DNA of 64,000 bases from positions 62,001 through 126,000 of the forward strand of contig JACPUC010000029.1 of NCBI GenBank assembly GCA_016192455.1. Direction: 5' to 3'. Under the pieces are notes generated by a model, which was not told where the DNA came from, did no database searches, and saw nothing but the letters and a program-made list of their open reading frames with translations. This DNA comes from Candidatus Tectimicrobiota bacterium. GTDB lineage: Bacteria > JACPUC01. Below are positions 3,571-36,055 of the stretch, one piece after another; within the stretch, counting starts at the first letter, position 1; each line of letters opens with the position of its first letter. A program made the translations under genes and the position numbers.

Positions 3571-3673
3571 GCCGGCAGCGGCCCGCCTCCTCCTCGCCGC
3601 CGCGGCCGCCCCGGCGCTCGGTCCCGCAACGTCCCAGCCGTCGCCCGCCGCGATCCAGGCCGGCGCTGAGCCG

Positions 3674-3868
3674 CTACGACGAGGCGAAGGGGTTGCGCGC
3701 GTCGCCCTGGGCTTCCTTCAGCCGCCGCCGCGCCGCCTCGGCGCGCTCCCCGGTGAGGACGATCTCTCCAAGGATGGGGCAGTAAAACAGGATAGCCGTT
3801 TCACTGGCGCCGCCGGTCGAGCCGCGCAGCACGGTGCGCTCCTTTACAATCCGTGGGTGACATTCCAT
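3674..3868 (-). CDS. small hypothetical protein
   Basis: ORF 3674..3883; the better RBS (AAAGGGA) precedes the second Met (MECHPR...); lies within the operon. Confidence 0.5.
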   Translation of the reverse strand: MECHPRIVKERTVLRGSTGGASETAILFYCPILGEIVLTGERAEAARRRLKEAQGDARNPFASS

Positions 3869-3991
3869 GCACGTCCCTTTCATTGCCTTGCGTGTCTCAT
3901 GCCCGCGGCTCGCTTGTCTCCCACCCCCCGGCCGCCTCGTCGGCGGGTGCGCGACGGGGCAGGCGACGGCGGCGACCAGGCTTGCCGCCGC

Positions 3992-5119: not shown

Positions 5120-5227
5120 GAAGCTACCATGCTGGATGGGGAGAGGCTCTCAAACCTCGTGATTTCGCGCGCCCGCGGCGACCAGGAGGGTGGGAGACGG
5201 GCCGCCGCGCGGCGCGGGCCCCACGGC

Positions 5228-5911
5228 TTAGGCGCTGCCCGGGTAGGCGCCCACCTGCACCTTGGCGGGGCGCAGGATGGCGCTGCCGTACCGATAGCCG
5301 ACCTCGAACTCCGCCACCACGATGCCGTCCTGGGCTGGATCGTCAACCCGCCGCAGATGCACCGCCTCGGCGACCTTCGGATCAAACGCCTGCCCCACCG
5401 TTTCAAGGCGCTCCACGCCCTCTCCGGCAAGCTGCCGCATCATCTGCTGGCGAATCTGCTGCACGCCCGCCAGGAGGGAGTCGAAGACGCGCTGCTCCTC
5501 GGCGGCGGCGAGAGCGCGGTCGAAGTTATCCAGGATGGCGAGGAATGCGTGCAGGAACTCTCCCTTGGCCCGGGCGAGTTGCTGCTCGGCGTCGCGTTGC
5601 AGCCGCTCCCGCAGGGCTGCCTGCTCCTGACGGACGGAGTCGCGAAACTCGTCGAGACGGCGTTCGTTCTCGTGCAGGCGCTGCTGCAACTGCTCGACGA
5701 AGGTCGGCAGGCGCGGCTGGAAGGCCGTCTCCGCAGGCGCCGCGTCGGCGCCGACGCTCGCCTCGCCATTGTCGTCCCGCACCCAGAAGCGGCGGTCCGT
5801 TATCCGCAGCGGCGTGTCGCCACCCTCCCGGCGCGAGGCGCCATGGGTGGGGCGCTCCTCGCTGGAGGTGTCGATCTTCGGCGGGGCGCCGGGGTTCCAA
5901 GCTGGTTCCAT
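5228..5911 (-). CDS. grpE: nucleotide exchange factor GrpE
   Basis: LDNFDRAL, GQAFDPKVAEAV and GYRYGSAILRPAKVQV motifs. Confidence 0.93.
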   Translation of the reverse strand: MEPAWNPGAPPKIDTSSEERPTHGASRREGGDTPLRITDRRFWVRDDNGEASVGADAAPAETAFQPRLPTFVEQLQQRLHENERRLDEFRDSVRQEQAALRERLQRDAEQQLARAKGEFLHAFLAILDNFDRALAAAEEQRVFDSLLAGVQQIRQQMMRQLAGEGVERLETVGQAFDPKVAEAVHLRRVDDPAQDGIVVAEFEVGYRYGSAILRPAKVQVGAYPGSA

Positions 5912-5950
5912 GCTCTCTCCTCCCCATGCTGACGCCTGGTCGGCGCAAGG

Positions 5951-6817
5951 TCAGGCGGTGCCAACGAGCGCAGAGCGATTGGCGCGCAACCGCGCAATGC
6001 GTTCCTCGATGGGCGGATGGGTGCTCAGCAGGGTGAGGAGGCCCGAGCCGCGCAACGGACTGACGATGAAGAGGTTCTCCGTTCCCGGGTTGGCTCCCAT
6101 GGGGAAGCGCCGCGAAGCGACGTGGAGCTTCTCCAGGGCGGCGGCAAGGCCTTCGGGGTTGCGGGTGAGCCGCGCCGCCCCGTCATCGGCGAGGTACTCG
6201 CGCGAGCGCGAGATGGCCATCTGCACGATCATGGCCGCGAACGGCGCCAGGATGGCCACGAAGAGCAGCGCCAGGGGGTTGCGCCCCTCCTCCTCGTCGT
6301 CACGGCCGACGCCCCCGAAGATGGCCGCCCACTGCGCCATGTTGGCGAGCATCATGATGACGCCGGCGAGCGTCGCGGCGACCGAGGCGATGAGGATATC
6401 TCGGTGCCGCACGTGCGTGAGCTCGTGGGCCAGCACCCCCTCGATCTCCGCGGGCGACAGCAGGCGCAGCAGCCCGTCGGTGACGGCGATGACGGCGTGC
6501 TCCGGGTCGCGCCCGGTGGCGAAGGCGTTGGCGCCCTCTTGCGGGATGAGGTAGAGGCGCGGCATGGGGAGGCCGGCGCGTTGCGCCAGGCGCCGCACCA
6601 TGTCATAAAGCTCCGGCGCCTCGCGCGGACCGATCTCCTGGGCATGGTACATGCGCAGGACGATCTTGTCGGAGTACCAGTAGCTGCCGACGTTCATGAG
6701 CACCGCGAAGAGGAAGGCGATCATCAGCCCTCCCCGACCGCCGATCGCGGAGCCCACCAGCATGATGAGCACCGTCAACACCGCCAGAAGCAGAAAGGTT
6801 TTTGTTGTGTTGAGCAT
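5951..6817 (-). CDS. htpX: zinc metalloprotease HtpX
   Basis: [14 protein letters not shown] (HExxH), SRSREYLAD and STHPP motifs. Confidence 0.95.
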
Positions 6818-6929
6818 TCCTCTCTCCCACGTCTCTCCACCCAGCCGCGGAGAGCCCCGCAGGTTGCGAGAACCGAATCGCCCGAGCGCGGCGCAGCGGC
6901 CGGCGGGCGCCTGCCGTCAGGGGGCCGCC

Positions 6930-7865
6930 TCAGCTCTTGCGCGGCGTACAGGCATTCAGGCGATCGAACTCGCGCAGCAACTCCTGGGAGCGTTCGTCGA
7001 GGTTGCGGTTATAGACGAGCTGCACGGTGACGTACTGGTCGCCCTGCCCGCCGCCCTTCAGGTGCGGCACCCCGCGCCCCCGCAGGCGAAACTTCTGGCC
7101 GCTCTGCGTCCCCGCTGGGATGGTCATCTGCGTGACGCCGTCGATGGTGGGCACCTCGATCTTCGCCCCCAGGGCGGCCTCGGCGAGCGTGATCGGCACC
7201 GTGCAGGAGATATCGCTGTCGCGGCGCTCGAAGGCGGGGTGGGGGAGCACCCGCGCGACGATGTAGAGATCTCCCGGCGGGCCGCCGTTGCGTCCCTCCC
7301 CCCCCTTGCCGGCGACGCGCACCTTCGATCCGGTGCCCACGCCGGCAGGGATTTTCACGCTGATGGACTCGCGTCCCCCCTTGCCGTTCTGCACGGAGAT
7401 GTGCTTCGCCGTGCCATGCACCGCTTCCTCAAAGGTGAGCTCCAGGGTGGCCTCGACGTCCTCGCCGCGCAGCGCCTCGGTGGCGCGGCGGTGCGCCTTA
7501 GCTCCGCGGGCTCCGAACAACCCACTGAAGAGGTCCTCGAAGCCGCCGGACGGCGAACGGCCGCCGCCGAACTGGCTGAAGTCGAAATTGCCGAAGTTGA
7601 AGCCGCCGGCATTGCCGAAGGGCGTGCCAGGACCAAAGGCGCTGTGGCCGAGCTGATCATACTTGCGGCGCTTCTCGGCGTCGTGCAGCACCTCGTACGC
7701 TTCGGAAATCTCGGCAAAGCGCTCCGCGGAACCCGGCGCCGGATTGATGTCGGGGTGGTACTGGCGCGCCAGTTTCCGGTACGCCCGCTTGAGCTCCGTA
7801 TCCGAGGCGGTCCGCTTCACGCCGAGAACGTCGTAGTAGTCACGCTTTGCCACGGTTCGACTCAC
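6930..7865 (-). CDS. class B J-domain chaperone (CbpA/DnaJ2-like)
   Basis: J domain with HPD, G/F region and C-terminal domain; no zinc finger. Confidence 0.92.
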
Positions 7866-8099
7866 ACACCCCGATGGTGCAGCGCGGCGGGCCGCCTTGG
7901 TCTTCCGGCTGCACCTTCCTCGCGGTCCAGCGCAGCCCCCGGCCGCATGGTCAGAGCTGCCTGCGTTGACCTCGCCGACACGCTAGGAGCTCCGTTTCAC
8001 CGCACGGGCTCCCGTGTCGGCTCGGCGGCTCCTTCCGCCACGCGGCGCGCGCCCGAGCCCCGCGACCTCGGGCAAGGAAACGCGCCGACAGCCCCGCAA

Positions 8100-9989
8100 T
8101 CATTTCTTGTTCGTATCCTCGAACTCCGCATCGACGACGTCGTCGGCGCCTTTGCCGCCGCCGTGGCGGTCCCCAGCGGCCGCCGAGGCCGTGGCTTGCT
8201 GGTACATCGCCTCGGCAAGCCGGTGCGACGCCTTGATCAAGGCATCCTGGGTGCGCTTGATCTCCTCGATGGTGCCTTTCTCGAGGGCCTCCTTGGCGGT
8301 TTTCAGCGCCGATTCAATGGACTCCGCATCGCTCGACGACAGTTTGTCGCGATGCTCGTTGAGCGTCTTCTCGGTCTGGTAGATGGTGCTGTCGGCACGG
8401 TTCCGGGTCTCGACCTCCTCGCGCCGCTTCTTGTCCTCGTCCGAGTGAACTTCCGCGTCTTTCACCATGTGCTTGATCTCGTCGTCCGACAGGCCGCTCG
8501 AGGCGGTGATGGTGATGTTCTGGGTCTTGCCGGTGCCGAGGTCCTTGGCGTTGGCGTGCAGGATGCCGTTGGCGTCGATGTCGAAGGTCACCTCGATCTG
8601 CGGCATGCCGCGCGGGGCCGACGGGATGCCGTCCAGGTGGAAGCGGCCCAGGGTGCGGTTATCGCGCGCCATCTCGCGCTCGCCCTGCAGGACGTGGATT
8701 TCCACGCTCGGCTGGTTGTCGGAGGCGGTGGAGAAGATTTCGGCCTTCTTCGTGGGGATGGTCGTGTTGCGCTCGATGAGGCGCGTCATCACGCCACCCA
8801 GCGTCTCGATACCGAGCGACAGCGGCGTTACGTCGAGAAGCAGCACGTCCTTCACGTCGCCGCCCAGGATGCCGCCCTGGATTGCGGCGCCGACGGCGAC
8901 GACCTCATCGGGGTTCACCCCCTTGTGCGGCTCGCGGCCGAAGAACGACTTCACCAGCTCCTGCACCTTCGGGATGCGGGTGGAGCCGCCGACCAGCACC
9001 ACCTCGTCGATCTCGCTGGTCTTCAGGCCGGAGTCCGCCATCGCCCGCCTGCAGGGCTCGAGGGTGCGCTCGAAGATCGAGCCGGCAAGCTGCTCGAACT
9101 TGGCGCGCGTGAGCCGCATGTGCAGGTGCTTCGGGCCGGAGGCGTCGGCGGTGATGAAAGGCAGGCTGATGTCCGTCTCGACCGTGGAGGAGAGTTCAAC
9201 CTTCGCCTTCTCCGCGGCCTCCTTCAAGCGCTGCAGTGCCATCTGGTCCTTCGAGAGGTCGATGCCCTGATCCTTCCGGTACTCATCAACCAGCCAGTCG
9301 ATGAGGCACTGGTCGATGTCGTCACCCCCAAGGTGGGTGTCGCCGTTGACGGCCTTCACCTCGACGACGTTGTCCCCCACCTCGAGGATCGAGATGTCGA
9401 ACGTGCCGCCGCCGAAGTCGAAGACGGCGATCTTCTCGTCCGCCTTTTTGTCGAGGCCGTAGGCAAGGGCTGCCGCCGTGGGTTCGTTGATGATGCGCTC
9501 CACCTGCAGCCCGGCGATGCGTCCCGCATCCTTTGTAGCCTGGCGCTGGCTGTCGTTGAAGTACGCCGGCACCGTGATGACCGCCTTCTCGACCTTCTCG
9601 CCGAGGTAGTCTTCGGCGGCCTGCTTGAGCTTTTGCAAGATCAAGGCCGAAATCTCGGGTGGCGAGTAGTCCTTGTTGTCAATGCGCACGCGGGCATCGT
9701 TGTTCGCCGCCTTCACCACCTTGTACGGCACCAGCTTGATCTCGCGCTCGACCTCGTCGAAGCGGCGGCCCATGAAGCGTTTGATGGAGTAGATGGTCTT
9801 CTCCGGGTTGGTGATCGCCTGACGCTTCGCCACCTGCCCCACCGCGCGCTCACTGTCTTTCATGAAGGCGACCACCGACGGCGTGGTGCGTCCGCCCTCT
9901 GAATTCGTAATGACCTTGGGCTCGCCCGTCTCCATCACGGCCACCACGGAGTTGGTGGTCCCAAGATCGATGCCGATGATCTTGCTCAT
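8100..9989 (-). CDS. dnaK: chaperone DnaK
   Basis: [25 protein letters not shown] and DVVDAEFE motifs. Confidence 0.98.
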
Positions 9990-10152
9990 AGTTACCCGTC
10001 CTCCTTAGCTTCACGCGCTGGGCAGGAAGCTGCGCGCACCTCCCACCTGGGAGCCCCAGTCCTCATCCATGCAAGGGCAAAACTTCAGGCGTCCGAGCCG
10101 GCCGCCGCAAAAATGAGTCACCTCGCTGAGCATGGCCGGCGCGCTCATTTGC

Positions 10153-23454: not shown

Positions 23455-24444
23455 ATGCGAGGAGTCCTCATCCGCGAGTTCGGGCCGATCGAGTCGCACA
23501 AGCTGGAAGACGTGCCCGCGCCGGTTCCAGGTGACGACGAGGTGCTCATCAACGTGCACGCCATCGGCGTCAATTTCCCCGATACCCTGATGCTGCAGGG
23601 GCTCTACCAGAAGAAGCCGGCGCGCCCCTTCGTGCCCGGGCGCGACATCGCCGGCGTGGTCGCCGCCGTCGGCAAGAAGGTGACGCGCTGCAAGGTCGGC
23701 GAGCGGGTGGTGGCCCTCGTCTGGTGGGGCGGCTATGCCGAGCAGACCGTGGCGCCACAGTCCAGGGTCTTCCACATGCCCCAGGGATTGGACTACGTGA
23801 CCGCCGCCGGCATGTTCACCGTCTTCAACACCGCCTACGTCTCCCTCGTCGTCCGCGGCCTGTACCAGCCCGGCGAGACCGTCCTGGTGAACGGCGCCGG
23901 CGGCGGCGTCGGCTCCTCCTGCGTGCAGGTCGCCAAGGCCAAGGGAGCCACCGTGATCGCCGGCGACATCACCGAGGCGAAGCGGCAGCTCGCCAAGGAG
24001 AACGGCGCCGATTCCACCATCGACCTCTCCGTCGGCGACCTGAACGAGAACCTCCGCCAGCAGGTCTTCGCGCTGACCAACGGGCGCGGCGTGGATATCG
24101 TCCTCGATCCCGTCGGCGGCGACGTCTTCGACGCCTCGCTCCGCGTCCTCGCCTTCGCCGGGCGCATCGTCACCATCGGCTACACCTCGGGTCGCCTGCC
24201 GGTGGTGAAGGCCAACTACCTCAACGTCAAAAACCTCTCCGCCGTCGGCGTGGCCCTCGACCTGCACTTCGATCACGCCCCCCAGACCATGGAGAAAGTT
24301 GTCGCCGACCTCTTCGATATGTACGTGAAGGGGAAAATCCGCCCGAAAATCACCGCCACCTACCCCCTCGCCGAATTTCAGAAGCCGCTCACGCTTCTGC
24401 ACCAGGGCAAGGCGATGGGCAAGATGGTGCTGACGGTGCGCTAA
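23455..24444 (+). CDS. NADPH:quinone oxidoreductase (zeta-crystallin/MDR family)
   Basis: GVNFPD, PFVPGRDIAG, NGAGGGVG, GVDIVLDPVGG and GKMVL motifs. Confidence 0.92.
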   Translation: MRGVLIREFGPIESHKLEDVPAPVPGDDEVLINVHAIGVNFPDTLMLQGLYQKKPARPFVPGRDIAGVVAAVGKKVTRCKVGERVVALVWWGGYAEQTVAPQSRVFHMPQGLDYVTAAGMFTVFNTAYVSLVVRGLYQPGETVLVNGAGGGVGSSCVQVAKAKGATVIAGDITEAKRQLAKENGADSTIDLSVGDLNENLRQQVFALTNGRGVDIVLDPVGGDVFDASLRVLAFAGRIVTIGYTSGRLPVVKANYLNVKNLSAVGVALDLHFDHAPQTMEKVVADLFDMYVKGKIRPKITATYPLAEFQKPLTLLHQGKAMGKMVLTVR

Positions 24445-24829
24445 CGCCTGCGCCAGCGCCAGGCATGCTGATTGAGGACGGGGGAGCACGCTGGGCTTCC
24501 CCGTTGCGCCTCGTCGTCTGGCGCAAGGCTTGCGGTGCTGCGTGTCGCGCGCCCGCTGCGCTGATCCCCGCGCCGAGGGTCCGGCGTCGATGTCGGTGAC
24601 CGCGGCGCGGCTTGGCGGCGAGTTTCTCGCGTGGATGGATGCCTCTCGGAGCCTACCCGCTCCTGCGATCAGCCTTGGGTCTGCCTCGCTTCCCGACGCT
24701 GCGATGGCGTCGCCTGCCGTGTGCATCAAGCTCAGTCCCAGGGCGCGAATGTCTCCTCGCAGGGCGTGAGGCATCTCCTGGGGAGCCGGAGCATACACCG
24801 CAGAAAAAAGCATCCCTCCTGGCGATCGG

Positions 24830-24914
24830 GCGAAGGTGGCGGAACTGGTAGACGCGCTGGACTTAGGATCCAGTGGGGTAACCCATGGGGGTTCAACTCC
24901 CCCCCTTCGCACCA
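24830..24914 (+). tRNA. tRNA-Leu (anticodon TAG)
   Basis: GCGAAGG acceptor stem pairs with CCTTCGC-ACCA; D arm GGCGGAACTGGTAGACGC; anticodon arm CTGGA-CTTAGGA-TCCAG; long variable arm; T arm GGGGG-TTCAACT-CCCCC. Confidence 0.96.
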
Positions 24915-25627
24915 CCTGGGTTTCAAGGGGAGTCCGTATCGGGAGGCTCAGCCCTGCCCCGTACCGCGAGGTGTCCGGACATTCAATAAGTTCTGTGGCG
25001 GCTGCCATGCGGGAAGAAGACCTGCGTGGACAGCGCGGAGACAGTAAGCCCCCTGAGAGGCTTTCCATGGCCCGTCGCTGGCCGTTCCCTTCCTGTACGT
25101 TGGCCGCGGAACGTTCCAGGGGCGCCGTCGTGGGGGCGACGCACCGGCGGAGGGGGTGGCGCGGGAAGCGCCTGCCGGCGCGTCCGGTCAGGATGGGCGG
25201 AGTGACCCTGGCCTTGTCGATACCTGGGGATGAGACCTTGCAGCGGAATTGGATTCGTGCCATGCTCAGGCACCTCCTTCCGGAAGCCGCGGGGTTAGCT
25301 CCTTTGTGCTCCCGTCACGCATTGTTCTGCAATGGGTTAGTCAAAATGGTGAGGCTTTCGGGGGCAGGAATCGCGGCATCAACGTCTGGTCAAGAAGCGA
25401 TCTGCGTTGCTCCCTCCTGACGAGGTTCGAGGATGTTGTCGGATGAGTGCGGATTGGGAAAAGGTATCCATGGAAGTCGGATGTAGTTCATCTTTTTAGG
25501 TAGGAGGGAAACAGCGGATTAAGGGCGAGGGTTTCGATCATTGAGGAAGCCCTGATTTTCAGCCGCTGGCAGTGGTCCTATTCACGACAAGACGCCGGGT
25601 TCTCAACCGGCAAGACCATAGTTAACT

Positions 25628-25681
25628 CCGCAGATGACGCAGATTTCACAGATGAATCTGCGGAATCGGCGCAATCTGCGG
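25628..25681. repeat. palindromic GCAGAT/ATCTGC repeat element
   Basis: ccgcagatgacgcagatttcacagatg-aatctgcggaatcggcgcaatctgcgg: three ~9-nt units followed by their imperfect inverse. Confidence 0.7.
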
Positions 25682-25808
25682 ATTCATCCCTTGGAGAGAA
25701 CCGCGGCGCGTGGGAGGTCGAAGTAGCGGAAAAGCGGCTGACACTGCAACAGAAGGAAACGGCTGCCGCTGGGTTCCGCTTCAGCGCCGGAAGATGGCGA
25801 GGGGGGGA

Positions 25809-26795
25809 GTGAAGGTGAGGAAGTTTGTTGTCTCTGTGCTCTTGGTAACGCCCATCACGTTCGTCCTGCTCGCCTCTTTCACCTCCTTGACAGCCTGCGC
25901 GCAACAGAAAGTGCCTCTCACCTACGGGTTTTCCAGTGATGTTGGGCGGCAGACGATCCACTATGCCTTGAGTAGGGGTTTGGTGCGTTCAGATGCCGTC
26001 GAGGTGAAACTTTTCCCGCAGTCGATTGACGCCTTGGTGGTGGCCCTGGGCACCAAGCGCTATGAGGTTTTGGAGACCTCGTCCTTCGGATTTTTGGCGG
26101 CTCGATCCCGGGGTGTGAACCTTGTTATTATCGGCAAGGGGTATCGGACGATAGACGGGCAGTATATCCTCGTCAGTAAGGACTCGCCCTTGCAGGGGCC
26201 GCAAGAACTGCGGGGGAAACGTGTCGCCATCACCGCGCTCGGTTCGACTTCCGTGGGGCTGCTCCGCCTGGTGTTGAAGCACAAGTATCAGTTGAATGTC
26301 GATAATGTCCGCTGGCAGGAAATCCCGATGTCGAACATCAGTACGGTGATAAACCGTGGTCAAGCCGAGGCCGGCTATACCTTCCAGACGGCGTCCTACC
26401 GAAGTTTGAAAACGGGCTTGTTTAAGGTCTTGATCAACGTTTCAAAAGAGTTTGAGGAGCTGTTCAAGATCGAATACATTCCATCGGTTTTTGTGACGTA
26501 CCGCGACGTCGTTGAAAAATCACCGGCTGCGATCCGCGAGTTTCAGCGCCTCCTCGCTGCCTCGATTGAGTATGGCCGCGCGCACGCGAACGAGGTCATC
26601 CCGCAGATCGTGAAAGAGCGCGGCTTGGACCCGGAGATGCTGCAGAAATGGATCGACTGGAATGTTGGTGGAGGGCGCTTGAGCGACGCGGATATCGCCG
26701 CGTACCAACGCCAGTGGAAGCTGGCGCAGGACTCCGGCATCCTCCCCGCCCAGGAAGTTACCGCTGACATGTTCTGGAAGGGATTCTGGGAGTAG
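25809..26795 (+). CDS. ABC substrate-binding protein, SsuA/NMT1-like
   Basis: Hydrophobic N-terminus; VSKDSPLQGPQELRGKRVAI motif; start uncertain (25794 or 25809). Confidence 0.8.
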   Translation: MKVRKFVVSVLLVTPITFVLLASFTSLTACAQQKVPLTYGFSSDVGRQTIHYALSRGLVRSDAVEVKLFPQSIDALVVALGTKRYEVLETSSFGFLAARSRGVNLVIIGKGYRTIDGQYILVSKDSPLQGPQELRGKRVAITALGSTSVGLLRLVLKHKYQLNVDNVRWQEIPMSNISTVINRGQAEAGYTFQTASYRSLKTGLFKVLINVSKEFEELFKIEYIPSVFVTYRDVVEKSPAAIREFQRLLAASIEYGRAHANEVIPQIVKERGLDPEMLQKWIDWNVGGGRLSDADIAAYQRQWKLAQDSGILPAQEVTADMFWKGFWE

Positions 26796-26914
26796 GTGGA
26801 GTGGTTGAATTGGGAGCGACGTGTGCAGCCCGCCGCGTGGTGTGGTTCATCGCGTCGTGGTGTCGTATCACTGCAGATCGCCCCTGTGCGAATGCACGGG
26901 GAGGGGGGAAGACG

Positions 26915-27877
26915 ATGGTCAGGAGAGATCGTTGCATGAGATGGGTTGCCGCCTTCGCGATAGGCCTCCTTGCCTTGGGCGCCGTCGTCAAAGTCTCCGT
27001 CGCTCAGGCCCCGCCGGTCCCGCCCCTGGTGAAGCCGGGGTTCACGACGAAGATTGCCGAGAACGTCTACGTCATCCCGGATCACGATGTGCGTCTCGTA
27101 CCCAACATCGGCATCCTGGTTGGTCAGAACGGCATTCTCGTGGTCGATACCGGCATGGGACCGAAGAATGCTGAAACGGTTCTCGGTGAAGTGCGTAAGA
27201 TCAGCAACAAGCCGATCCTCTACCTCGCCATCACGCACATGCACCCTGAACACGGCATGGGAGCGCAAAGCTTCCCAAGCGAGACCAAGGTAATTTACGC
27301 CGAAGCCCAAAAAAAAGAGCTCGCGGACAAAGCTGAGCGCTTCATCAAGTTCTTCAGTGGGTTCAGTCCACAAATTGCGGAGCTGTTGAAGCCGGTGCGC
27401 ATCGTGCAGCCCACGGAAACTTTCCAGAGCGAGGCTCGCCTCAACCTCGGTGGTTTCCCGGTGCAGCTCCTGCATTTCGGGGCCTCGCATACACGGGGCG
27501 ACACGCTGATTTACCTCCCTGAACAGGGCATCATTTTTGCCGGCGATGTGGTCGTGAACGGCTGGTTCCCCATCATGCCTGACAACGATTCAAGCGGCAA
27601 GAACTGGATCGCCACCCTCGAAAAGCTCAAGGGGATGAAGCTGAAAACGGTGGTGCCCGGACATGGTCCCGTGGGTCAACCAACGATGATTGATCCGCTG
27701 CAGACCTACCTGACGACGCTGCGCAGCGAAGTCACCACTCTGCAAAAGCAAGGGAAATCGCAGGAGGAGGTGGTGAGCGCTTTGACGCCGGTGTTCAAGG
27801 AGCGGTACGGCACCTGGAAGGATAATCAGTGGCTGAAGAACGCCATTGGGCGGTTCTACGCGGAAGCCACGATGTGA
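26915..27877 (+). CDS. exported MBL-fold metallo-hydrolase
   Basis: VVDTG, THMHPEH, HTRGD, FAGD and VPGHG motifs; signal peptide. Confidence 0.88.
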   Translation: MVRRDRCMRWVAAFAIGLLALGAVVKVSVAQAPPVPPLVKPGFTTKIAENVYVIPDHDVRLVPNIGILVGQNGILVVDTGMGPKNAETVLGEVRKISNKPILYLAITHMHPEHGMGAQSFPSETKVIYAEAQKKELADKAERFIKFFSGFSPQIAELLKPVRIVQPTETFQSEARLNLGGFPVQLLHFGASHTRGDTLIYLPEQGIIFAGDVVVNGWFPIMPDNDSSGKNWIATLEKLKGMKLKTVVPGHGPVGQPTMIDPLQTYLTTLRSEVTTLQKQGKSQEEVVSALTPVFKERYGTWKDNQWLKNAIGRFYAEATM

Positions 27878-27927
27878 TTGGCACGGCGGTCTCGTTCGCG
27901 GCATCGGCGGGCCGGTGCCGCGAACGG

Positions 27928-28839
27928 TCACGCGGTCGCCGACTCCACCGTGGGTATGGCGAAGGCAGTGCTTGCGAGTTCGGCGAGGGGGATGGGCCGG
28001 CGGCCTAAACTCGTGGAGAAGAGCTCCATCTCTCTGCTCAAACTGGCGAGGTCGAGCTTCGCGACCCATCTGTGAGCCAGGCGGTCGTAGCATTCCTCGG
28101 CGAGGTCGCGCTGCAGGTGCCATCCTTCCATGAGGTAGGCCACGCTGGCTGGCCTGTCTGTCCGCATGGCTTGCACGCAGGCCGTGTACCCATGGATGAG
28201 CCGTTGCACGACCTCGGGGTGATCCCTGATGAACCGCTCCGTTGTCACCAGCGCATGGCTTGCCCGGCCGAAGAATGCCTGACTCAAATCCGCGACGACT
28301 CGAAAGCCGGCGCGCAGCAGGGCGAAACATTCGGGCGGACTCGACACCAGGCCTCTACATTGCCCAGTCGTGAAGGAGGTAAGGCGTTCCTCCGGGGTAT
28401 AGGCGCGCTGGTGGGCGGGGAAGGCGACGTCCAGTCCCGGCCTCAGTCCGTGCTGGCGCAAGAGGAACGCCGCATGCCACTCCGGCATGGCGCCCCTGGC
28501 AGGCGTCATGAGCGCGGCGCCGCGCAAATCCTCGAGCCGCCCCACCTCTGCCGGCGCCACGATGAGATGGAGTGGATTTTCAACTACCTGCACGATGATC
28601 TTCAAGCCGCGTTCGCCAGCGAAGGCTTTCTCGAAGACCCCCTCGGTTGAACCTCCGAAGTCCGCCTCGCCCGAGAGGACTGCTTCCACATTCTGGATGT
28701 CCGCGCGCACCATGACCTCGGCTGCCACACCCTGGGCGGCGAAGAAGCCTTGTTCCACCGCCATCCAGAGGGGCGCGATGTTGAGAGAATGAGCCATCAG
28801 CGCCAGGCGCACGGAATGCGATTCTCCTGCGCGCGCCAC
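27928..28839 (-). CDS. SsuA/NMT1-like solute-binding protein, apparently without a signal peptide
   Basis: APLWMAVEQGFFAAQG, AVLSGEADF and LEDLRG motifs; GTG start 6 nt after AGGAGG. Confidence 0.75.
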   Translation of the reverse strand: MARAGESHSVRLALMAHSLNIAPLWMAVEQGFFAAQGVAAEVMVRADIQNVEAVLSGEADFGGSTEGVFEKAFAGERGLKIIVQVVENPLHLIVAPAEVGRLEDLRGAALMTPARGAMPEWHAAFLLRQHGLRPGLDVAFPAHQRAYTPEERLTSFTTGQCRGLVSSPPECFALLRAGFRVVADLSQAFFGRASHALVTTERFIRDHPEVVQRLIHGYTACVQAMRTDRPASVAYLMEGWHLQRDLAEECYDRLAHRWVAKLDLASLSREMELFSTSLGRRPIPLAELASTAFAIPTVESATA

Positions 28840-29362
28840 CTCGCACCTCCTGTGAAGCCGCATCTGATCGAAACCCGCACTGACGTCGGTTCGCAGCTCA
28901 ACAAGGGTGGCAGCCGGGGCTTCCAGCTCGCGCGGGGAGAGCCGCGCATGGCGTGACGCCGCCGCGAGCGCCTTCCCTCGGAAGACCCTCGGAGCATCTC
29001 CTCATGCAGCCGCGGAACCTCCCACGGTTCTTCACCCTTTCTACCGTGGCCTCCCCGTCGCTCACCCCTTCGCGCCACCCATTCGAGGCTGAATCAGCGC
29101 GGAGTCGGGAGATGCCTCGTGAGACCGGCGCACTCCGAGATGCAAGGCAAGCTCGGGCCGGAGGCGCGCCACTGTCGGGTCCAGCCCCTGGAGCCGCCTC
29201 CCGACAGCTCCCCTGGCAGGTAAACGAGAAGCCGCCGACACGTTGTCGGCGGCTTCTGGCAGCACAGTCACCCCATGCCCCCCGCGGGCTGACGGCAGGC
29301 TCTGCCGCGGTATGTGCGTCTGCGGCCAGGCGCCTTGCTTTGGGGGTCGGTAGTGTGGCTCC

Positions 29363-29752
29363 CTAGCAGCAGAAATGGACGCACTGGTTCTTGCCGCGAT
29401 TGTGCTTCTTGATGGCGGCGTCGATCGTCTTGTTCACCAGGTTCCGGTCCAGACCGACCGCGAAGTTCTTCCCGGCAGGGGACGCGGCGGTATCCTTGAA
29501 CATCGCCACCAGAACGTCTTCAACCACCGCATCCTTACCGCCATTGGCGCGGTAGGCCTTTTGGGGGTCAAGCTTCTTGGCCGGCTCATCCACCTTCTGC
29601 AGCAGGAGCTGGCCGATCGCTTTCTCCAACGCCTTGACCTCCTGCTCCTTCTGGGCAAAGGCGTTGCGAACCAATCCAAGCGAGCCCAGGGTGGCAACCC
29701 CACCGACTGCCGCCGTCTTCTTGAAAAACTCCCGACGGGTATTGCTTTCCAT
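29363..29752 (-). CDS. Tat-signal small protein, copy 3 (129 aa, ends GKNQCVHFCC)
   Basis: MESNTRREFFKK twin-arginine motif, AFA cleavage site, RBS AAGGAG. Confidence 0.85.
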   Translation of the reverse strand: MESNTRREFFKKTAAVGGVATLGSLGLVRNAFAQKEQEVKALEKAIGQLLLQKVDEPAKKLDPQKAYRANGGKDAVVEDVLVAMFKDTAASPAGKNFAVGLDRNLVNKTIDAAIKKHNRGKNQCVHFCC

Positions 29753-29890
29753 GAATGCGCACTCCTTCTCGGCCTCTCGGCCTATAACCCACCATTTTTC
29801 CCACTCGCTCCCCGCGCCGCACGTCCATGTCATCTGTCGTGCGATCGAGGAGCTGCGGGACGCCAACGGGAACCGCTGCTTCCCGCTGCT

Positions 29891-30280
29891 CTAGTTATTG
29901 CACGAGCCCGAGATGCCGAAGTTCTTGCCGGGGAAGCGCTTCGCAAGCACCCTGTCCTTGGCTTTCTTGATGAGATCGGGAAGCGCAGTCACGTCGGGCA
30001 TCTTGCCGCCAAGCTCCTTATCGAGGTCCGCGAGGACCTCTTCCGTGGCCCCTGCCTTGGTGCCGCCAAGCCCCTGGTAGATGGTGACGAGGCTCACCTT
30101 CTTCTTGCCGCGCAGACCTTCCAAAACGCCGCGTCCAACCGCCTGGCGCAGAATCTCCTCGATGCTCTCGGCGGCCAGGGCCTTCGAGACCACCGCGGCA
30201 CTTCCCAAACCGAGCGCTCCTCCGACCACGGCCGCCGACTTCATGAATTTCCGCCGAGTGCTCTTCAGGTCATCACCCAT
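29891..30280 (-). CDS. Tat-signal small protein, copy 2 (129 aa, ends GKNFGISGSCNN)
   Basis: STRRKFMK twin-arginine motif, ALA cleavage site, RBS AGGAG. Confidence 0.87.
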   Translation of the reverse strand: MGDDLKSTRRKFMKSAAVVGGALGLGSAAVVSKALAAESIEEILRQAVGRGVLEGLRGKKKVSLVTIYQGLGGTKAGATEEVLADLDKELGGKMPDVTALPDLIKKAKDRVLAKRFPGKNFGISGSCNN

Positions 30281-30585
30281 TGTCGACACTCCTACCAAGC
30301 CAGGCATGCCTGGCAACCCTTCGCAGGCTCGACCCGCTCTCCCTAGGTCAGCCTCTTGAACTTCTGCATGAATTTCTCTTTCTAGCACAGTGGCAAAAGG
30401 TTCGTCAAGCAGAATATCGCCCCTTGCTCGTCTTCTTCGTCCTGGCTCTTTTCTACTCCCGCGTCGACTCCCCCCTCCAGGCCGCAACGCTCCGGCCGCG
30501 CTGAGGGGGAGCCCCTTTCCCCCCGCCGCCTTGGGCGGAGCAGGAAATGAAGCACGCAAGCGAGAACCCGTGCTCGACGCTACCC

Positions 30586-30975
30586 TTAGTTGTTACATGC
30601 ATTCGAGATGGACCAGTTCTTGCCGGGGAAACGCTTGGCAAGCACCTTGTCCTTGGCCTTCTTGATGATGTCGGGAAGCGCATTCACGTCAGGCATCTTG
30701 CCGCCAAGCTCCTTGTCGAGATCCACGAGGACCTCTTCCGTGGCCCCTCCCTTGCCACCGCCAAGCCCCTGGTAGATGGTGACGAGGCTCACCTTCTTCT
30801 TGCCGCGCAAACCTTCCAGCACGCCGCGTCCAATCGTCTGGCGCAGAATTTCCTCGAGGTTCTCGGCGGCCAGCGCCTTCGAGACCACCGCGGCACTCCC
30901 CAGACCGAGCGCTCCTCCGACCACGGCCGCCGACTTCATGAATTTCCGCCGAGTGCTTCTCAGGCCCTCGCTCAT
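30586..30975 (-). CDS. Tat-signal small protein, copy 1 (129 aa, ends GKNWSISNACNN)
   Basis: STRRKFMK motif, RBS GGGAGG; close paralogue of 29891..30280. Confidence 0.87.
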   Translation of the reverse strand: MSEGLRSTRRKFMKSAAVVGGALGLGSAAVVSKALAAENLEEILRQTIGRGVLEGLRGKKKVSLVTIYQGLGGGKGGATEEVLVDLDKELGGKMPDVNALPDIIKKAKDKVLAKRFPGKNWSISNACNN

Positions 30976-31107
30976 CGCCGCAACCCCTCCCTAATCAATG
31001 GCATGCCCTTTAATGGCCTACCCCTTCTTCCGCACGCGCCATACGGCGCAGGATCAACCGGTCGCGCTTACGCCTACAGCCGTTCCTATCACCCGGCAAG
31101 GTAATAG

Positions 31108-31557
31108 TCAAGTGGAATTATTGCTCTCCCCGCGCTTTCCTTCGCTTGCTCGGTCCTTCCGCCGGCCTCGTCTCGCTGCTCCCGCGGGAGGGGCTGGCGC
31201 CGTTCTGGGGGAGCGCTTGACGACAGCGGTTTCCTTCGTCGGGGAAAGGTGCACCAATAGCACCACCACTGCGGTCCAGGCGAGGAGGCGAAAGTTGCTG
31301 CCCTGCGGGACCTGGACGAAGATGCCGGCCCGTCCCTGCAGTGCCTCCACACCGACCGTGATCAGCCCCATCCCGCGCACCAGGTGCAGGAGAACCGGCG
31401 CCTTGAGCTTCCTGCTCACCAGTTCGTGGCCGGCCGCCATGCCGTGCAACACCATCTTCACCTCACCATCCTCGTACAGTGAAGCGGTGGCGATGCCCCG
31501 CTTCGAGACCTCGACCTGCTTAGCGAGGTCATCAACCACACGGTAGGTCAGTCCCAT
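31108..31557 (-). CDS. cupin-fold protein with degenerate metal site
   Basis: KMVLHGMAAGHEL...LHLVRGMGLITVG...LQGRAGIFVQVP matches small cupin barrels; basic low-complexity tail. Confidence 0.6.
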   Translation of the reverse strand: MGLTYRVVDDLAKQVEVSKRGIATASLYEDGEVKMVLHGMAAGHELVSRKLKAPVLLHLVRGMGLITVGVEALQGRAGIFVQVPQGSNFRLLAWTAVVVLLVHLSPTKETAVVKRSPRTAPAPPAGAARRGRRKDRASEGKRGESNNST

Positions 31558-32118
31558 GGCGCCCTTCCCATGCTCCCTTGGGGGGGTGTTGCGCGGCGTC
31601 AACCGTGCCGGCGCCCCATCAGGCGCCGGCGCCCCGCCCTTGCCGTCAACGCGCCTGCGGCGGCTGCCTCTCCCAGCGCACCGCAGGACTTCCTGCGTGA
31701 CGCTCTTCTAACACAAGCGAGGTTCGCAGCAAAGCGCTGGCAGCCGGGCCGCCTTGCTCTGTCAAGAACGACGGCGCCCTTAGGTGCTTCGCGGGCGGAG
31801 GGAAGGGATACGGGGCGTGCCGAGATGAAAGGTCTGGCGCTGTCGTCGGGGCGCCCGGCGCTCCCTCGCCCTGCGCCGATGGCTTCGGGGGGAGGTTGCG
31901 CCGCGCGTGGCCGTGAAAGAAGCCTTGACCGTCACGGGGAGAGCCGCAATAATAGGCACTTCCAGGCACGCCTCGGTTGCCGGCGGGGGGCGCGTGGCTC
32001 GGTGGAGCGCCGAGCGCCGAGGTTTGTCACGGCAGCGCGCCGGCGGCGAGGCACGCGGCGCCGCGGGCAGCGGCGGTCTCACTGCGCGCGGCGCGCGCCA
32101 GAGTGGGGATGACGCGTC

Positions 32119-32553
32119 ATGAGGCAGGAAATCACCCTCACCGTGCCTTCCTCGACGGAGTTTCTCCACGTTGTGGGGGCGGTGATGTCGGAGATGGCGG
32201 CCCTGGCTGGGTTCGACGACCGGCAGCGGCGTCGCATCGAGTTGGCGGTCGATGAAGCGTGCTCCAATGTCCTTCTCTGCGCCTACCAGCAGGAGAGCGA
32301 GCAAAGCTACCGAATCGGCTGTGTGAAGGAGGCAAGCGAGCTGCGCATCACGATTACAGACTGGGGGCAGGACTACGCCTTTCCCGCCGCCGGGGAGCTC
32401 AGCCTGCCGGCGAAGCTCCCGGACCCCTCGAGCGCGAACATTGGTCTCTACCTCATCTACCAGATCATGGATGAGGTGACCTTCGTCAGCCAGACGCAGC
32501 AGCACGTGTTGAGCATGAGAAAACTCCTCCACCCGAGCGACGCGAGGCCGTAA
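32119..32553 (+). CDS. anti-sigma factor / Ser kinase (RsbW-like, HATPase_c_2)
   Basis: IELAVDEACSN N-box, ITDWG G1 box, IGLYLIYQIMDEV. Confidence 0.85.
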   Translation: MRQEITLTVPSSTEFLHVVGAVMSEMAALAGFDDRQRRRIELAVDEACSNVLLCAYQQESEQSYRIGCVKEASELRITITDWGQDYAFPAAGELSLPAKLPDPSSANIGLYLIYQIMDEVTFVSQTQQHVLSMRKLLHPSDARP

Positions 32554-32891
32554 TGTCAATGGAGATCACCAACCGATTCGAGAACGACGTGCTCGTTCTC
32601 GGCCTTGACGGTCGTTTCGACGCGCATGCCGCACCGCAGGTCGAGGAGACCTTTACGACGCTCTTCAGCCAGGGCGCCACGAAGGTGGTCGTCGATTTCA
32701 GCGCTGTGGGCTATCTCAGCAGCGCCGGCTTGCGCGTCCTGTTGGTGATGATCCGCAAGCTGAAGAGTGCGCAGGGCGCAATTGTCCTGGCGGGGTTGCA
32801 GCCGCACGTGAAAGAGGTCTTCGATATCTCTGGGTTCACCGACTTGTTCACGATCGAGGGCAGCGTGCAGGAGGCGCTCGCGGCGATCTGA
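32553..32891 (+). CDS. anti-sigma factor antagonist (STAS, RsbV-like)
   Basis: GRFDA, VVDFSAVGYLSSAGLRVL (phospho-Ser) and VFDISGF motifs; TAATG coupling to the upstream gene. Confidence 0.92.
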   Translation: MSMEITNRFENDVLVLGLDGRFDAHAAPQVEETFTTLFSQGATKVVVDFSAVGYLSSAGLRVLLVMIRKLKSAQGAIVLAGLQPHVKEVFDISGFTDLFTIEGSVQEALAAI

Positions 32892-32959
32892 TCTCACGTG
32901 GATGCGGCGGAGGTGGCTCTGGCGGCCTCCTGAGAGATCATGCTCACGGAGACGTTGCG

Positions 32960-33385
32960 GTGACGAAGGAAGCCACGCTGCAGTTGCCGGCCGACACTGC
33001 GTACCTCAAGATGATTGGCGAGTTCGTCTCGCGCATGGCAAAGATCAGCGGCTTCGACGACCTCGACTGCAAGCGCATCGAGGTGGCCGTCGATGAGGCC
33101 TGCACCAACGTCATTGAGCACACCCAGCGCGGCGCCTCGCATGACGCCTTCTCAATCTGCTGCCGGGCCGTGGCGAGCGGCATCGAGATCACCATCAGCG
33201 ATCGCGGCGCGCCCTTTGATTTCGACTCCGTTGCCGTGCCCGATGTCTCCGCCGGGGCGGAGGATCGCCCCATTGGCGGGCTCGGCATCTTTCTGATGAA
33301 AAAATTCATGGATTTCGTGAAGTACACGCCCGGCGCCGACGGCATGCGGCACCTGACGATGAGCAAGAACAGGCCCGCGGGCTGA
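32960..33385 (+). CDS. anti-sigma factor / Ser kinase (RsbW-like)
   Basis: AVDEACTNVIEH, ISDRGAPFD and RPIGGLGIFLMKKFMD motifs. Confidence 0.92.
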   Translation: MTKEATLQLPADTAYLKMIGEFVSRMAKISGFDDLDCKRIEVAVDEACTNVIEHTQRGASHDAFSICCRAVASGIEITISDRGAPFDFDSVAVPDVSAGAEDRPIGGLGIFLMKKFMDFVKYTPGADGMRHLTMSKNRPAG

Positions 33386-33551
33386 CGCTGCCGCGGCGCC
33401 AGCCCGCCGCGGAAGCTCGGGTCACCTCTCCTGCTGGACGATCTTGCGCTCGGCGTCACGGCGCCTCGCGCGTTGGCCACCCTACCTCCCGCCTGGGCGC
33501 TCCGCCTGCCAGGGAGCGACCCAGGATGTGTTCCACGGCCAGGACAGATTC

Positions 33552-34946
33552 ATGCCCCTGATGAGTTCTCGCTTCGCTCTCCTGGTGGCGCTTGCACTGC
33601 TGATGCTGGCGGGGTGCGCGCAACTCCCGACGACGAAAATCTCCCAGATTCCCGATAAACCAATCTTCGGCCGTTCGCAGGGCGCTTCGAAGGGAATCCA
33701 GTTTCCGCCCGTGGGCGAGAAACGGCTTGAGATCACCATCAAGGATGGCAAGCTCACCGGTAATCTCGTGAATGCGCCCGCGGGCGAGGTCCTCAGCCTT
33801 ATCCAGCAGCAGCTTCCGGTGCAGTTTGTGCACCGCAGCAAGCTCTACGCCCGCATCACCGCCCGCCTCAAGGAGGTGCCCTTCGAAGAGGCCTTCGAGC
33901 TGCTGATGAAAGCCGGCGGCTACAAGGCTGAGAAAAGTGGCGAGGTCTACCTCATCACGCAAGCCCCTCCTGAAGAAGGCTCGTCGCCGGCGAAGACCCT
34001 GGCCGTCCAGGAGGTGTACCTGCAGTATGTGGACGCGACCAGCGTCCTCGAGCACCTGCGCGCCGCCTACCAGAACATCACCGACCCCCAGTACGGGTTT
34101 GGACTCCTTCCCGGCAACAGTGGCATCTATGTGATCGGCCCGCCGGCCCAACTGCAGGAAGTTCTCGATATCATCGCCCGCATGGATCGCGAGCTGCCGC
34201 AGGTGCTCATCGAGGCGATGGTCATTGAAATGAAACGCACCGATTTCCAGGAGGTGAGTCAAACCCTGTCGGAGTTTCCGGCGCACCTGCTGTCGGAAAT
34301 CCCCGAAGAGCTGACCGGCCGCTTCGATCCGGGAAGCTTGGAAGCGCCGGCGCTGCGGTTTCGTTTCCGAGTCACGGACCGGAGTCGCGATCGGTTCTTC
34401 CTGGAGATCTTCGCCCTGGTCCAGAAAGAACGGGCACGCATTGTCAGCCGTCCGTACATCGCTTCGCGCAGCGGCGAAGCGGCTGAGATTCGAGCCGAGC
34501 AAATCCAGAACATCCGCTCGGAATCACTGCAGTCGGGTGAAAGGCTCTCGTCGCTTGAGGAGCTGCGCGCCGGCACCACCATGCTCATCACCCCGACGGT
34601 GAACCCGGATCGCACCATCAGCATGCGGATGGAGCTGGGGCAGAGCGAGTTCATCGCCGGCGCCGAGGCGGAGTCGACCCGTACGTCCAACTCCGCGAAG
34701 TTCAGAGTGAACGTCCATGACGGCGAGACCATCGTGACGGGGGGGTTGATCAAACGGCGCAGGATAAGGAACCAGGCCTACATTCCTTTCCTCGGGCGCA
34801 TCCCGGTCTTGAAGTACATCTTCGGGAGCTTCGTCAGCAATGTTGAAGAGTCTGAGATTGTCTTCATCTTGACGCCGCATATTCTCCCCATTGACTATGA
34901 AGAGTTCCGCGACAGGAAGCTTCCCTTCCAGGGCGAACCACCCTAA
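33552..34946 (+). CDS. secretin (GspD/PilQ superfamily), predicted lipoprotein
   Basis: Lipobox LAGC; QVLIEAMVIE, ITPTVN, DGETIVTGGLI, IPFLGRIPVLKYIF and EIVFILTPHI motifs. Confidence 0.88.
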   Translation: MPLMSSRFALLVALALLMLAGCAQLPTTKISQIPDKPIFGRSQGASKGIQFPPVGEKRLEITIKDGKLTGNLVNAPAGEVLSLIQQQLPVQFVHRSKLYARITARLKEVPFEEAFELLMKAGGYKAEKSGEVYLITQAPPEEGSSPAKTLAVQEVYLQYVDATSVLEHLRAAYQNITDPQYGFGLLPGNSGIYVIGPPAQLQEVLDIIARMDRELPQVLIEAMVIEMKRTDFQEVSQTLSEFPAHLLSEIPEELTGRFDPGSLEAPALRFRFRVTDRSRDRFFLEIFALVQKERARIVSRPYIASRSGEAAEIRAEQIQNIRSESLQSGERLSSLEELRAGTTMLITPTVNPDRTISMRMELGQSEFIAGAEAESTRTSNSAKFRVNVHDGETIVTGGLIKRRRIRNQAYIPFLGRIPVLKYIFGSFVSNVEESEIVFILTPHILPIDYEEFRDRKLPFQGEPP

Positions 34947-34953
34947 GTGTCAG

Positions 34954-35141
34954 GTCTCACAAGTTCGCTCACACAGGTGCGGCGTCGCACCCTGCATTGG
35001 CAGGGGGCTTGGGGGGGGGCCATGCTCTCCCACACCCCTCCCTCACCCGTTCCCTCTCCCATTGGGAGAGGGGCCAGGGGTGAGGGGTGCGCGAAGGGAC
35101 AAGGGCCCGTCGCAGAATTGCGTGATGGAACTTAGGGGACA
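34954..35141. repeat. MITE-like intergenic repeat containing a CCCTCTCCC-N3-GGGAGAGGG hairpin
   Basis: 5' ~85 nt similar to 44397-44487; ends gtctcacaagttc and gaacttaggggac are imperfectly inverted. Confidence 0.6.
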
Positions 35142-35292
35142 CGACGGGAAGGTCGTCTTCTCGAAAACACCGTGGAAGTTTCGGGCCAAGCAGGGCTCGG
35201 GAGGCGCCCGCGCGTGGGCGATCCGACGGTGGCGCGCCGGCGGGTGAGAGGCCGCGGCAGCGCTCCGAGGTCAACAAAGGGCAAGAAGCTCA

Positions 35293-35321
35293 TTGACGCG
35301 AACCAGCGGGGGAATTATCGT
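35293..35321 (+). promoter_or_regulatory. putative sigma70 promoter upstream of argA
   Basis: TTGACG-17 nt-TATCGT. Confidence 0.5.
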
Positions 35322-35446
35322 TAAGCATATTTCGCGCCGCCGGCGGCGTGTCAGCCGCATGGCGGGGATGAGATGAAGCAGTGGGGGCGGCAGAGGGGGC
35401 GCGTCGTTCGCCTCCTGGCGCGATGCCCCCGGGGCGAGGTTGCACG

Positions 35447-36055
35447 GTGGCGAGCTTGATCCAAAGAGCAGGGGCTCCGGGACCGGCCGACGCACTCCTC
35501 AAGCCGGCGTCTTCAAACGGCGACGAGGGGCGGTGCGAGCCGGCGCCGGCGATCCGGCGGGCAACCATCGCGGACATCCCGCAAGTGCACGCCCTCATCG
35601 CACTCAATGCCAAGACCGGCGCCGTCCTGCCGCGCACCTTGGAAAACCTCTACACCACCGTGCGCGAGTTCCAGGTCTGCGTTGACGCTGACACCGTCAT
35701 TGGCATGTGCGCGCTCCATGTCAGCAACAGCACGCTCGCCGAGATCCGCTCCCTCTGCGTCGATGACCGCTACGAGGGGCGGGGAATCGGCTCCGCACTC
35801 ACCCAGGCGAGCATCAACGAGGCGCGTCGCCTGGGTCTCGGCACCGTCTTCGCCCTGACCTACCGCGTGAAGTTCTTTCAACGACTCGGCTTCACCGTCG
35901 TGGAGAAGAGCACCCTGCCCCAGAAGATCTGGACGGACTGCGTGCACTGTCACAAGTTCCCAACCTGCGACGAGACGGCACTGATCCTGCGACTTCAGGA
36001 GACCCCGGATCAGGAAGGGGCCGCCTCGCCACCTCTGCTGCGGGTGCTGCGCTGA
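35447..36055 (+). CDS. argA: short-type amino-acid N-acetyltransferase (N-acetylglutamate synthase, GNAT)
   Basis: LPRTLENLY, LAEIRSL, GRGIG, VFALTY and LPQKIWTDCVHCHKFPTCDE motifs; start uncertain. Confidence 0.85.
   Translation: MASLIQRAGAPGPADALLKPASSNGDEGRCEPAPAIRRATIADIPQVHALIALNAKTGAVLPRTLENLYTTVREFQVCVDADTVIGMCALHVSNSTLAEIRSLCVDDRYEGRGIGSALTQASINEARRLGLGTVFALTYRVKFFQRLGFTVVEKSTLPQKIWTDCVHCHKFPTCDETALILRLQETPDQEGAASPPLLRVLR

Follow-up and report, generated by a model that had tools for sequence, protein, structure and literature searches.

Three tandem genes for small, apparently Tat-exported proteins with cysteine-bearing C-terminal arms in a Candidatus Tectimicrobiota genome

The gene trio and its products

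We analysed a stretch of 64,000 nucleotides from a Candidatus Tectimicrobiota bacterium (contig JACPUC010000029.1, positions 62,001 to 126,000; hereafter the window), in which an earlier reading of the DNA, called here the original prediction, had picked out a tandem array of three small genes whose products combine a twin-arginine translocation (Tat) signal with a short, cysteine-containing tail. The open reading frames (ORFs) were located as described: gene A (P0001, 30586-30975), gene B (P0002, 29891-30280) and gene C (P0003, 29363-29752) all lie on the minus strand, and each is 390 nt long including the stop codon and codes for 129 amino acids (aa). The intergenic gaps measure 305 nt (A-B) and 138 nt (B-C), and a Shine-Dalgarno-like purine run is seen by eye 5-8 nt ahead of the ATG of all three. 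In A, a Tat signal (residues 1-36) is followed by a body predicted to be helical and by the tail GKN-WSISNACNN; B is 86% identical to A and ends in GKN-FGISGSCNN, and C, which shares 34% identity with A along its entire length, ends in GKN-QCVHFCC. A recount agreed with the original figure of 18 differing residues out of 129 between A and B, 4 of them within the last 9, and added 4 further differences in the first 6 residues that had been missed. C had been called distant but alignable, as it is: BLASTP aligns the mature parts of A and C over 89 aa at 28% identity (E = 3e-5), running without a gap through GKN to the aligned Cys. The mature products are basic, with isoelectric points of 9.2-9.4 and 11-14 Lys residues. 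We regard A, B and C as tandem paralogues within a lineage-restricted family.

The G+C content of the three genes is highest at the third codon position (GC3, 0.78-0.80), lower at the first and lowest at the second in this frame; their GC3 falls in the 9th-13th percentile of the genome's 2032 long frames and follows the coding pattern of this genome. Four groundwater runs of a single study contain 0.88-0.97 of the sampled words of the stretch, and five more, from five soil and groundwater studies, contain 0.06-0.18; no RNA run was among those listed as containing the stretch. Related strains in four of these five yielded 13 short contig pieces: nine longer ones (157-359 nt) that diverge at 0.5-5% of positions, and four fragments of 35-43 nt that fit worse. 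In the resulting list, which leaves out positions close to contig ends, 16 of the 28 differences are intergenic and 12 lie in the genes; the latter comprise 10 synonymous changes, a single replacement (N104D in C) and a TAA-to-TAG change of stop codon. Because the coding G+C pattern is present and the strain changes within the genes are mostly synonymous, we conclude, from a small comparison set (three paralogues, one orthologue and short strain contigs), that A, B and C are real genes under purifying selection, beyond chance ORFs.

The twin-arginine signals that had been noted score above the cut-off of the NCBIfam Tat model TIGR01409 (16.7 bits) in all three proteins, and the AxA site, placed by eye, stands at the end of each match as proposed. 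The putative signal peptide of A (30868-30975, minus strand; STRRKFMK ... ALA/AE, the slash marking the predicted cut) reaches 26.7 bits over residues 8-36, that of B (30173-30280, minus strand; ending ALA/AE) 26.8 bits over residues 8-36, and that of C (29654-29752, minus strand; NTRREFFK ... AFA/QK) 21.5 bits over residues 5-33. Scores for the Pfam Tat model PF10518 stay under its cut-off of 22.7 bits (A, 18.2; B, 19.4; C, 13.8). The same genome encodes TatC (PF00902, 236 bits; contig C10, G000:C10). We infer that A, B and C, which appear to travel by the Tat route, are cut after AxA and reside in the periplasm.

A helical bundle with a disordered tail had been suggested as something to look for in a predicted structure. 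AlphaFold2 (AF2), working from an alignment of four rows, gave such a model for mature A at middling confidence (predicted local distance difference test score, pLDDT, 66; predicted template-modelling score, pTM, 0.52): four helices, with residues 82-93 below a pLDDT of 50. A model that included the signal peptide (pLDDT 54) was set aside, and a homodimer prediction of mature A, with a score of 0.00, counts neither way. Foldseek returned nothing from the PDB at E <= 0.001, and the best match of a wide VIA-align search (Z 5.6, to saposin-like folds) lies under the noise level for helical models. Precursors of ~13 kDa would be expected to give periplasmic products of ~10 kDa with a compact, predicted four-helix body.

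Cysteine arms and the mosaic history of A and B

The C-terminal arm consists of GKN followed by nine residues with one Cys at +7 in A (30589-30624) and in B (29894-29929), and of GKN followed by QCVHFCC, with three Cys and one His, in C (29366-29395), all on the minus strand; in A it corresponds to mature residues 82-93, which the model puts below a pLDDT of 50. That the only cysteines are in the tail was borne out: the mature forms of A, B and C hold one, one and three, all placed by eye within the last nine residues, and the signal peptides are free of Cys. All three paralogues keep GKN and the Cys at +7 despite the low identity between mature A and C. The sole homologue found outside the window, P0005 (129 aa, 93% identical to C, from a contig of 1167 bp), has an identical arm; of its 129 residues 9 are not those of C, and the last 25 are all the same. 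No listed strain difference falls in a tail where contigs cover it, namely for C in strains X5 and X6, for B in X6 and X7, and for A in X6. At the end of gene C, strain X6 carries 10 differences in the 163 nt 3' of the gene and 0 in the last 42 coding nt; at the end of gene A it carries 5 differences in the 62 nt 3' of the gene, and the adjoining 95 nt of A (94 of them coding) show one synonymous and one stop-to-stop change, with no replacement in the arm. These observations suggest that the tail matters: it is conserved in the strains and in the orthologue, and it holds the sole thiol(s) of otherwise Cys-free exported bodies.

An unpaired Cys on a flexible end readily forms disulfides in an oxidising compartment. 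Possibly, then, the three proteins have no carrier role and are helical periplasmic proteins of an envelope-stress or chaperone-like kind, whose terminal Cys merely forms intermolecular disulfides among A, B, C or others. Their being basic, helical, small, exported and lineage-specific would suit such a role, and we found no direct evidence to counter it; yet it leaves the choice of Tat unexplained, as it does the tail of C with its three Cys and one His, and we consider it unlikely, though a live rival of the carrier reading.

The differing tails of A and B on a shared body had been the main argument of the original prediction, which likened them to a variable core on the constant leader of a peptide made on the ribosome and modified after translation (RiPP). 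At the nucleotide level, the differences between A and B number 6 in the 18 positions of codons 1-6, 26 in the 342 of codons 7-120 and 11 in the 27 of codons 121-129. Synonymous divergence (dS) is 0.20 and nonsynonymous divergence (dN) 0.044 in the body (codons 7-120); in the tail, synonymous change is saturated (4 of 5.5 sites) and dN is 0.43, and all four differing residues require two or three base changes. The synonymous sites are saturated in the head too, the first six codons having diverged like the tail. The sequences flanking A and B are unalignable, with random identity in register. Moreover, of the nine variants that the strains show in the bodies of A and B, four carry the base of the paralogue, against about 0.2 expected by chance according to our arithmetic. 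Since the ends have diverged at synonymous sites as well, the flanks do not align and so many variants match the paralogue, the pattern fits a recent homogenisation of codons 7-120, through gene conversion or an exact copying event, with the two ends keeping an older divergence. On this comparison, the differing tails of A and B give no sign that the tail has been under diversifying selection. The argument from a variable core therefore fails, and the variability itself does not extend to the strains or to the orthologue, where the tails are invariant. More generally, the trio illustrates that a constant body with a variable tail in tandem paralogues can stem from gene conversion and not from selection on the tail.

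Maturases, relatives and known systems

In a RiPP-type explanation, a maturase whose gene lies elsewhere would act on the Cys and Ser of the tail in the cytoplasm; the precursor would leave, folded, through Tat, and the tail would be freed after GKN. It draws on the long conserved N-terminal part with its short Cys/Ser tail, on the several tandem paralogues, and on the presence in the same genome of one MNIO gene and several radical S-adenosylmethionine (SAM)/SPASM genes. NHLP and Nif11 RiPP precursors likewise come as several tandem paralogues and join a leader of ~80-100 aa to a short, variable core with Cys and Ser; their leaders, however, carry no export signal and are located in clusters with a maturase and a transporter, whereas the trio carries a predicted Tat signal and its tails are conserved among strains. 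The absence of an adjacent modifying enzyme, already remarked on, extends to ~5 kb on either side of the trio. The sole MNIO gene sits on another contig (C1), near a candidate precursor of its own, an ATP-binding cassette (ABC) exporter and a radical SAM gene; YcaO was not found in the genome; and the four SPASM proteins, the nearest of them 43 kb away, score far under every peptide-maturase cut-off and are closest in likeness to cofactor maturases. LanC (PF05147) was not found in the genome either, a blank that shows little because the control search was positive in 0 of 14 genomes. Searches of Pfam and NCBIfam gave no match to NHLP, Nif11 or any other precursor family at E <= 1. The invariance of the tails between strains and in P0005, the mosaic age that accounts for the difference between A and B, and the body predicted by AF2 to fold all argue against such precursors as well.

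Protein-sized, signal-bearing RiPP precursors with Cys motifs do exist in the bufferins and oxazolins, which are MNIO-modified, have an N-terminal signal peptide, bear Cys and bind metal, some of them being protein-sized (PMC12452194). The trio resembles them in being apparently exported and Cys-bearing, with an N-terminal signal. The precursors of both, however, have signals that depend on the general secretory (Sec) pathway, and their genes stand directly ahead of those for the MNIO enzyme and its partner (PMC12452194), whereas the signal of the trio is of the Tat type, its genes are not ahead of an MNIO gene, and no bufferin family matches A, B or C in Pfam or NCBIfam. The neighbours of the trio are substrate-binding, metallo-beta-lactamase-fold (MBL), unknown and partner-switching genes, with no MNIO gene among them. 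Known signal-bearing RiPPs use Sec, the terms 'Tat' and 'twin-arginine' occurring 0 times in PMC12452194, and a literature search by titles and the opening lines of abstracts yielded no natural RiPP with a Tat signal. The inference of exported RiPP precursors is thus left unsupported; since it has lost its main argument and gained none, we regard it as very doubtful.

A related idea is that the trio is the first of a class of Tat-exported, protein-sized scaffolds whose Cys arm is modified in a RiPP-like manner, or loaded with a covalently carried cofactor or sulfur species, in the cytoplasm, the three copies representing three arm chemistries. Tat would then be used because the arm must be finished before export. 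We consider this distinctly improbable. Were the tail modified before export, Tat export would be linked to peptide modification, of which we found no natural case in the literature searched.

A separate RiPP-like cluster (L092; G000:C1:6000-17000, at ~3339-10069) surrounds the MNIO gene on contig C1 and looks, by eye, AT-richer than the genome. Its candidate precursor is a 64-aa ORF with a C-terminal Cys-Gly repeat (...GFCGCGCGCGCGA), and its MNIO gene scores 271 bits with PF05114 and, with the best NCBIfam model, BufB, 224 bits against a cut-off of 310. Between the two, on the opposite strand, lies a gene for a family-5 binding protein, and the cluster also contains an overlapping 282-aa ORF of no family, the ABC exporter, which is split, and the radical SAM/SPASM gene.

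The original prediction had spoken of an undescribed family, and we found no curated model, solved structure or fold match to set against this. Searches of Pfam and NCBIfam with A, B and C gave nothing beyond the Tat signal; PHROGs yielded two matches, neither of them significant (E 0.076 and 0.16), and PADLOC nothing; the best hit of a profile search of the PDB (E = 0.35) fell on the signal peptide and is no sequence match. Among 5.8 billion proteins, word-indexed searches recovered P0005 and the products of the window itself, and no others. An exhaustive phmmer search with C alone against 1.84 billion representatives added nothing credible. Because it did not recover A or B at E <= 0.001, relatives near 30% identity may nevertheless exist. 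A 1222-aa protein (P0006) matched signal residues 20-47 only, in 8 stretches, and was dismissed as low-complexity. In the Atlas there was no usable match for A and none at >= 0.9 for C.

Profile searches over 734 other genomes in total likewise gave no credible match. A full-length profile (A1) found the own genome only among 61, with none in the 60 others. One candidate among the genome-contig matches listed (at least 600), a 434-aa Tat protein (L008), aligned over query residues 5-79 and was judged to be driven by the signal. A profile of the mature region (A3) was run against sets of 5, 251, 401 and 17 genomes, which represent three phyla picked by DnaK similarity: it had 0 matches in the 5, the 401 and the 17, and six weak ones in the 251 (E 0.0016-0.03), which lie inside open frames of 318-1192 aa and were judged to be noise. 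In a scan of metagenome contigs, 599 stretches matched and 0 were relatives; the tail pattern P-G-K-N-x6-C-N-N-stop had 16 matches in such contigs, all in frames of less than 60 aa and attributable to chance. A regular-expression scan of the own genome, meant to pick up further small Tat proteins that end in a Cys tail, returned A and B only, being crude enough to miss C. At 4.46 Mb in 31 contigs and 88% completeness, this genome is the sole member of its phylum in the genome set searched. As rpoB was not found in it at this completeness, DnaK was used for a rough placement; its best identities, 64-72%, are to metagenome-assembled genomes spread over many phyla. That so isolated and deep a lineage should have an orphan family is no surprise, and although the family is new, its kind, that of small Tat-exported periplasmic proteins, is familiar.

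A possible role for the arm thiol and the surroundings of the trio

SoxY is the small exported carrier of the periplasmic Sox system, with its working Cys in a C-terminal peptide. It carries a Tat signal, and the Cys sits on a flexible 'swinging arm'. The trio does not belong to this family: the SoxY model TIGR04488 gave 14 bits against a cut-off of 125, with C only and over signal residues 5-53, and PF13501 was absent at E <= 1. The tails (WSISNACNN, FGISGSCNN and QCVHFCC, or GKN-x6-C) also differ from the GGCGG tail of SoxY, as the original prediction had said. The fold of SoxY is a beta-sandwich, whereas the body of the trio is predicted to be helical. Because the only, invariant thiol of a small exported protein sits here on a disordered C-terminal arm, an analogy with SoxY that implies no homology seems to us the best available idea. 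The working part of a small helical periplasmic protein would be the arm thiol, a ligand or carrier site analogous to that of SoxY; we put the probability of this at about 0.35. The GKN-x6-Cys arm, disordered in prediction and holding the protein's only thiol(s), would bind a metal ion or carry sulfur or a thiol adduct, and the copies would differ in their arm chemistry, with one Cys in A and B and three Cys and a His in C.

Several points weigh against this assignment. Everything about the role of the thiol, including what it would bind, is deduced. The structural model is of middling confidence and has the four-row alignment as its basis. Pfam and NCBIfam gave no match to a metal-binding or sulfur-carrier family; a search of the 88%-complete genome for SoxY, the one Sox family looked for there, found no gene; and the genes beside the trio include none for metal resistance or sulfur oxidation. 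A single Cys, as in A and B, cannot alone bind most metals, and could equally form a disulfide to a partner.

Csp1 offers another comparison. It is a Tat-exported, periplasmic helical-bundle protein that uses Cys thiolates, with ~13 Cu(I) ions held inside the four-helix bundle of a homotetramer (PMC7558416), and the bundle is lined with Cys (PMC9484137). The body of the trio, in contrast, is free of Cys, with one to three Cys in the tail only, and there is no family or PDB sequence match. If the arm thiol is indeed a carrier or ligand site, it would represent a second, structurally unrelated design of a Cys on a swinging C-terminal arm beside that of SoxY, and one from a bacterial lineage with no other member of its phylum among the genomes searched. 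The trio is in any case a well-documented orphan family, and its three small genes offer a built-in contrast of one Cys with three Cys and a His.

Upstream of A, on the same strand, lies an ORF of 149 aa counted from its ATG (31108-31557, minus strand), separated from A by 132 nt; it has no signal peptide and no family, and its best PDB match (E = 0.28) is not significant. Such an ORF would suit an escort, or 'hitchhiker', role, or that of a small structural subunit, in which each Tat protein would pick up, while still in the cytoplasm, a partner that lacks a signal and take it along on export, with its tail Cys contacting or linking the partner. The proteins are small and mostly helical, without evident cofactor-binding residues except the Cys and His of the tail, and yet carry a Tat signal. 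The nearest named neighbours in the Atlas are small Tat subunits, but their scores of 0.81-0.82 are at chance level. A hitchhiker subunit of this type is described for flavin adenine dinucleotide (FAD) glucose dehydrogenase (PMC6719666), as are heterodimers with the signal on one partner only (PMC10924467); the gamma subunit of the former and the small subunit of [Fe]-hydrogenase are small and signal-bearing, lack an obvious cofactor and travel by Tat (PMC6719666, PMC10924467). The trio, however, has no sequence match to them, and no hydrogenase or dehydrogenase gene adjoins it. Homology to known escort subunits was not found, PF02256 and others being absent at E <= 1; three paralogues are odd for one candidate partner; and the 149-aa ORF matches no family, with nothing shown that ties it to the trio. 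An escort role, which we judge unlikely though a live rival, also leaves unexplained why the sole invariant feature of the tail is a Cys on a disordered arm.

Downstream of C, RNA folding gave a terminator-like hairpin (29227-29257, minus strand), a 14-bp G+C-rich stem followed by UCUCGUUU, which probably ends the transcription unit and is absent from the list of a consensus terminator scan. The RNA of the B-C spacer (29753-29890, minus strand) folds far better than its shuffles, at -61.8 kcal/mol (z = -4.27; 0 of 200 shuffles reached this value), and has no U tract and no Rfam match; Rfam gave nothing credible across 28800-32200. Beyond the terminator, on the same strand, lies a gene for a signal-less SsuA/NMT1-like binding protein. 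Facing it on the opposite strand is an operon of a second such protein and the MBL protein (26801-27877, plus strand), whose gene begins 5 nt after that of the binding protein. The MBL protein has an N-terminal signal-like segment, and the model that fits it best, TIGR04559 (the SoxH-related 'quinoprotein relay system zinc metallohydrolase 2'), scores 151 bits where the cut-off is 280. On the other side of the trio (32119-34946, plus strand) stands a HATPase_c_2 (anti-sigma kinase-like)/STAS/HATPase_c_2 partner-switching set, followed directly by a PilQ/GspD-type secretin.

G+C content is 0.59-0.64 at about 24000-36000 of the window and 0.68-0.73 elsewhere in it. This stretch includes the trio, both SsuA/NMT1-like proteins, the MBL protein, the partner-switching genes and the secretin, and may be an acquired or atypical region. 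At a distance from it, a match to PF10712 ('NAD-specific glutamate dehydrogenase', 561 bits; 6696-9902, plus strand) lies on the strand opposite DnaK (HSP70, 883 bits; 8100-9989, minus strand); PF10712 is a family that we take to be a suspected antisense artefact.

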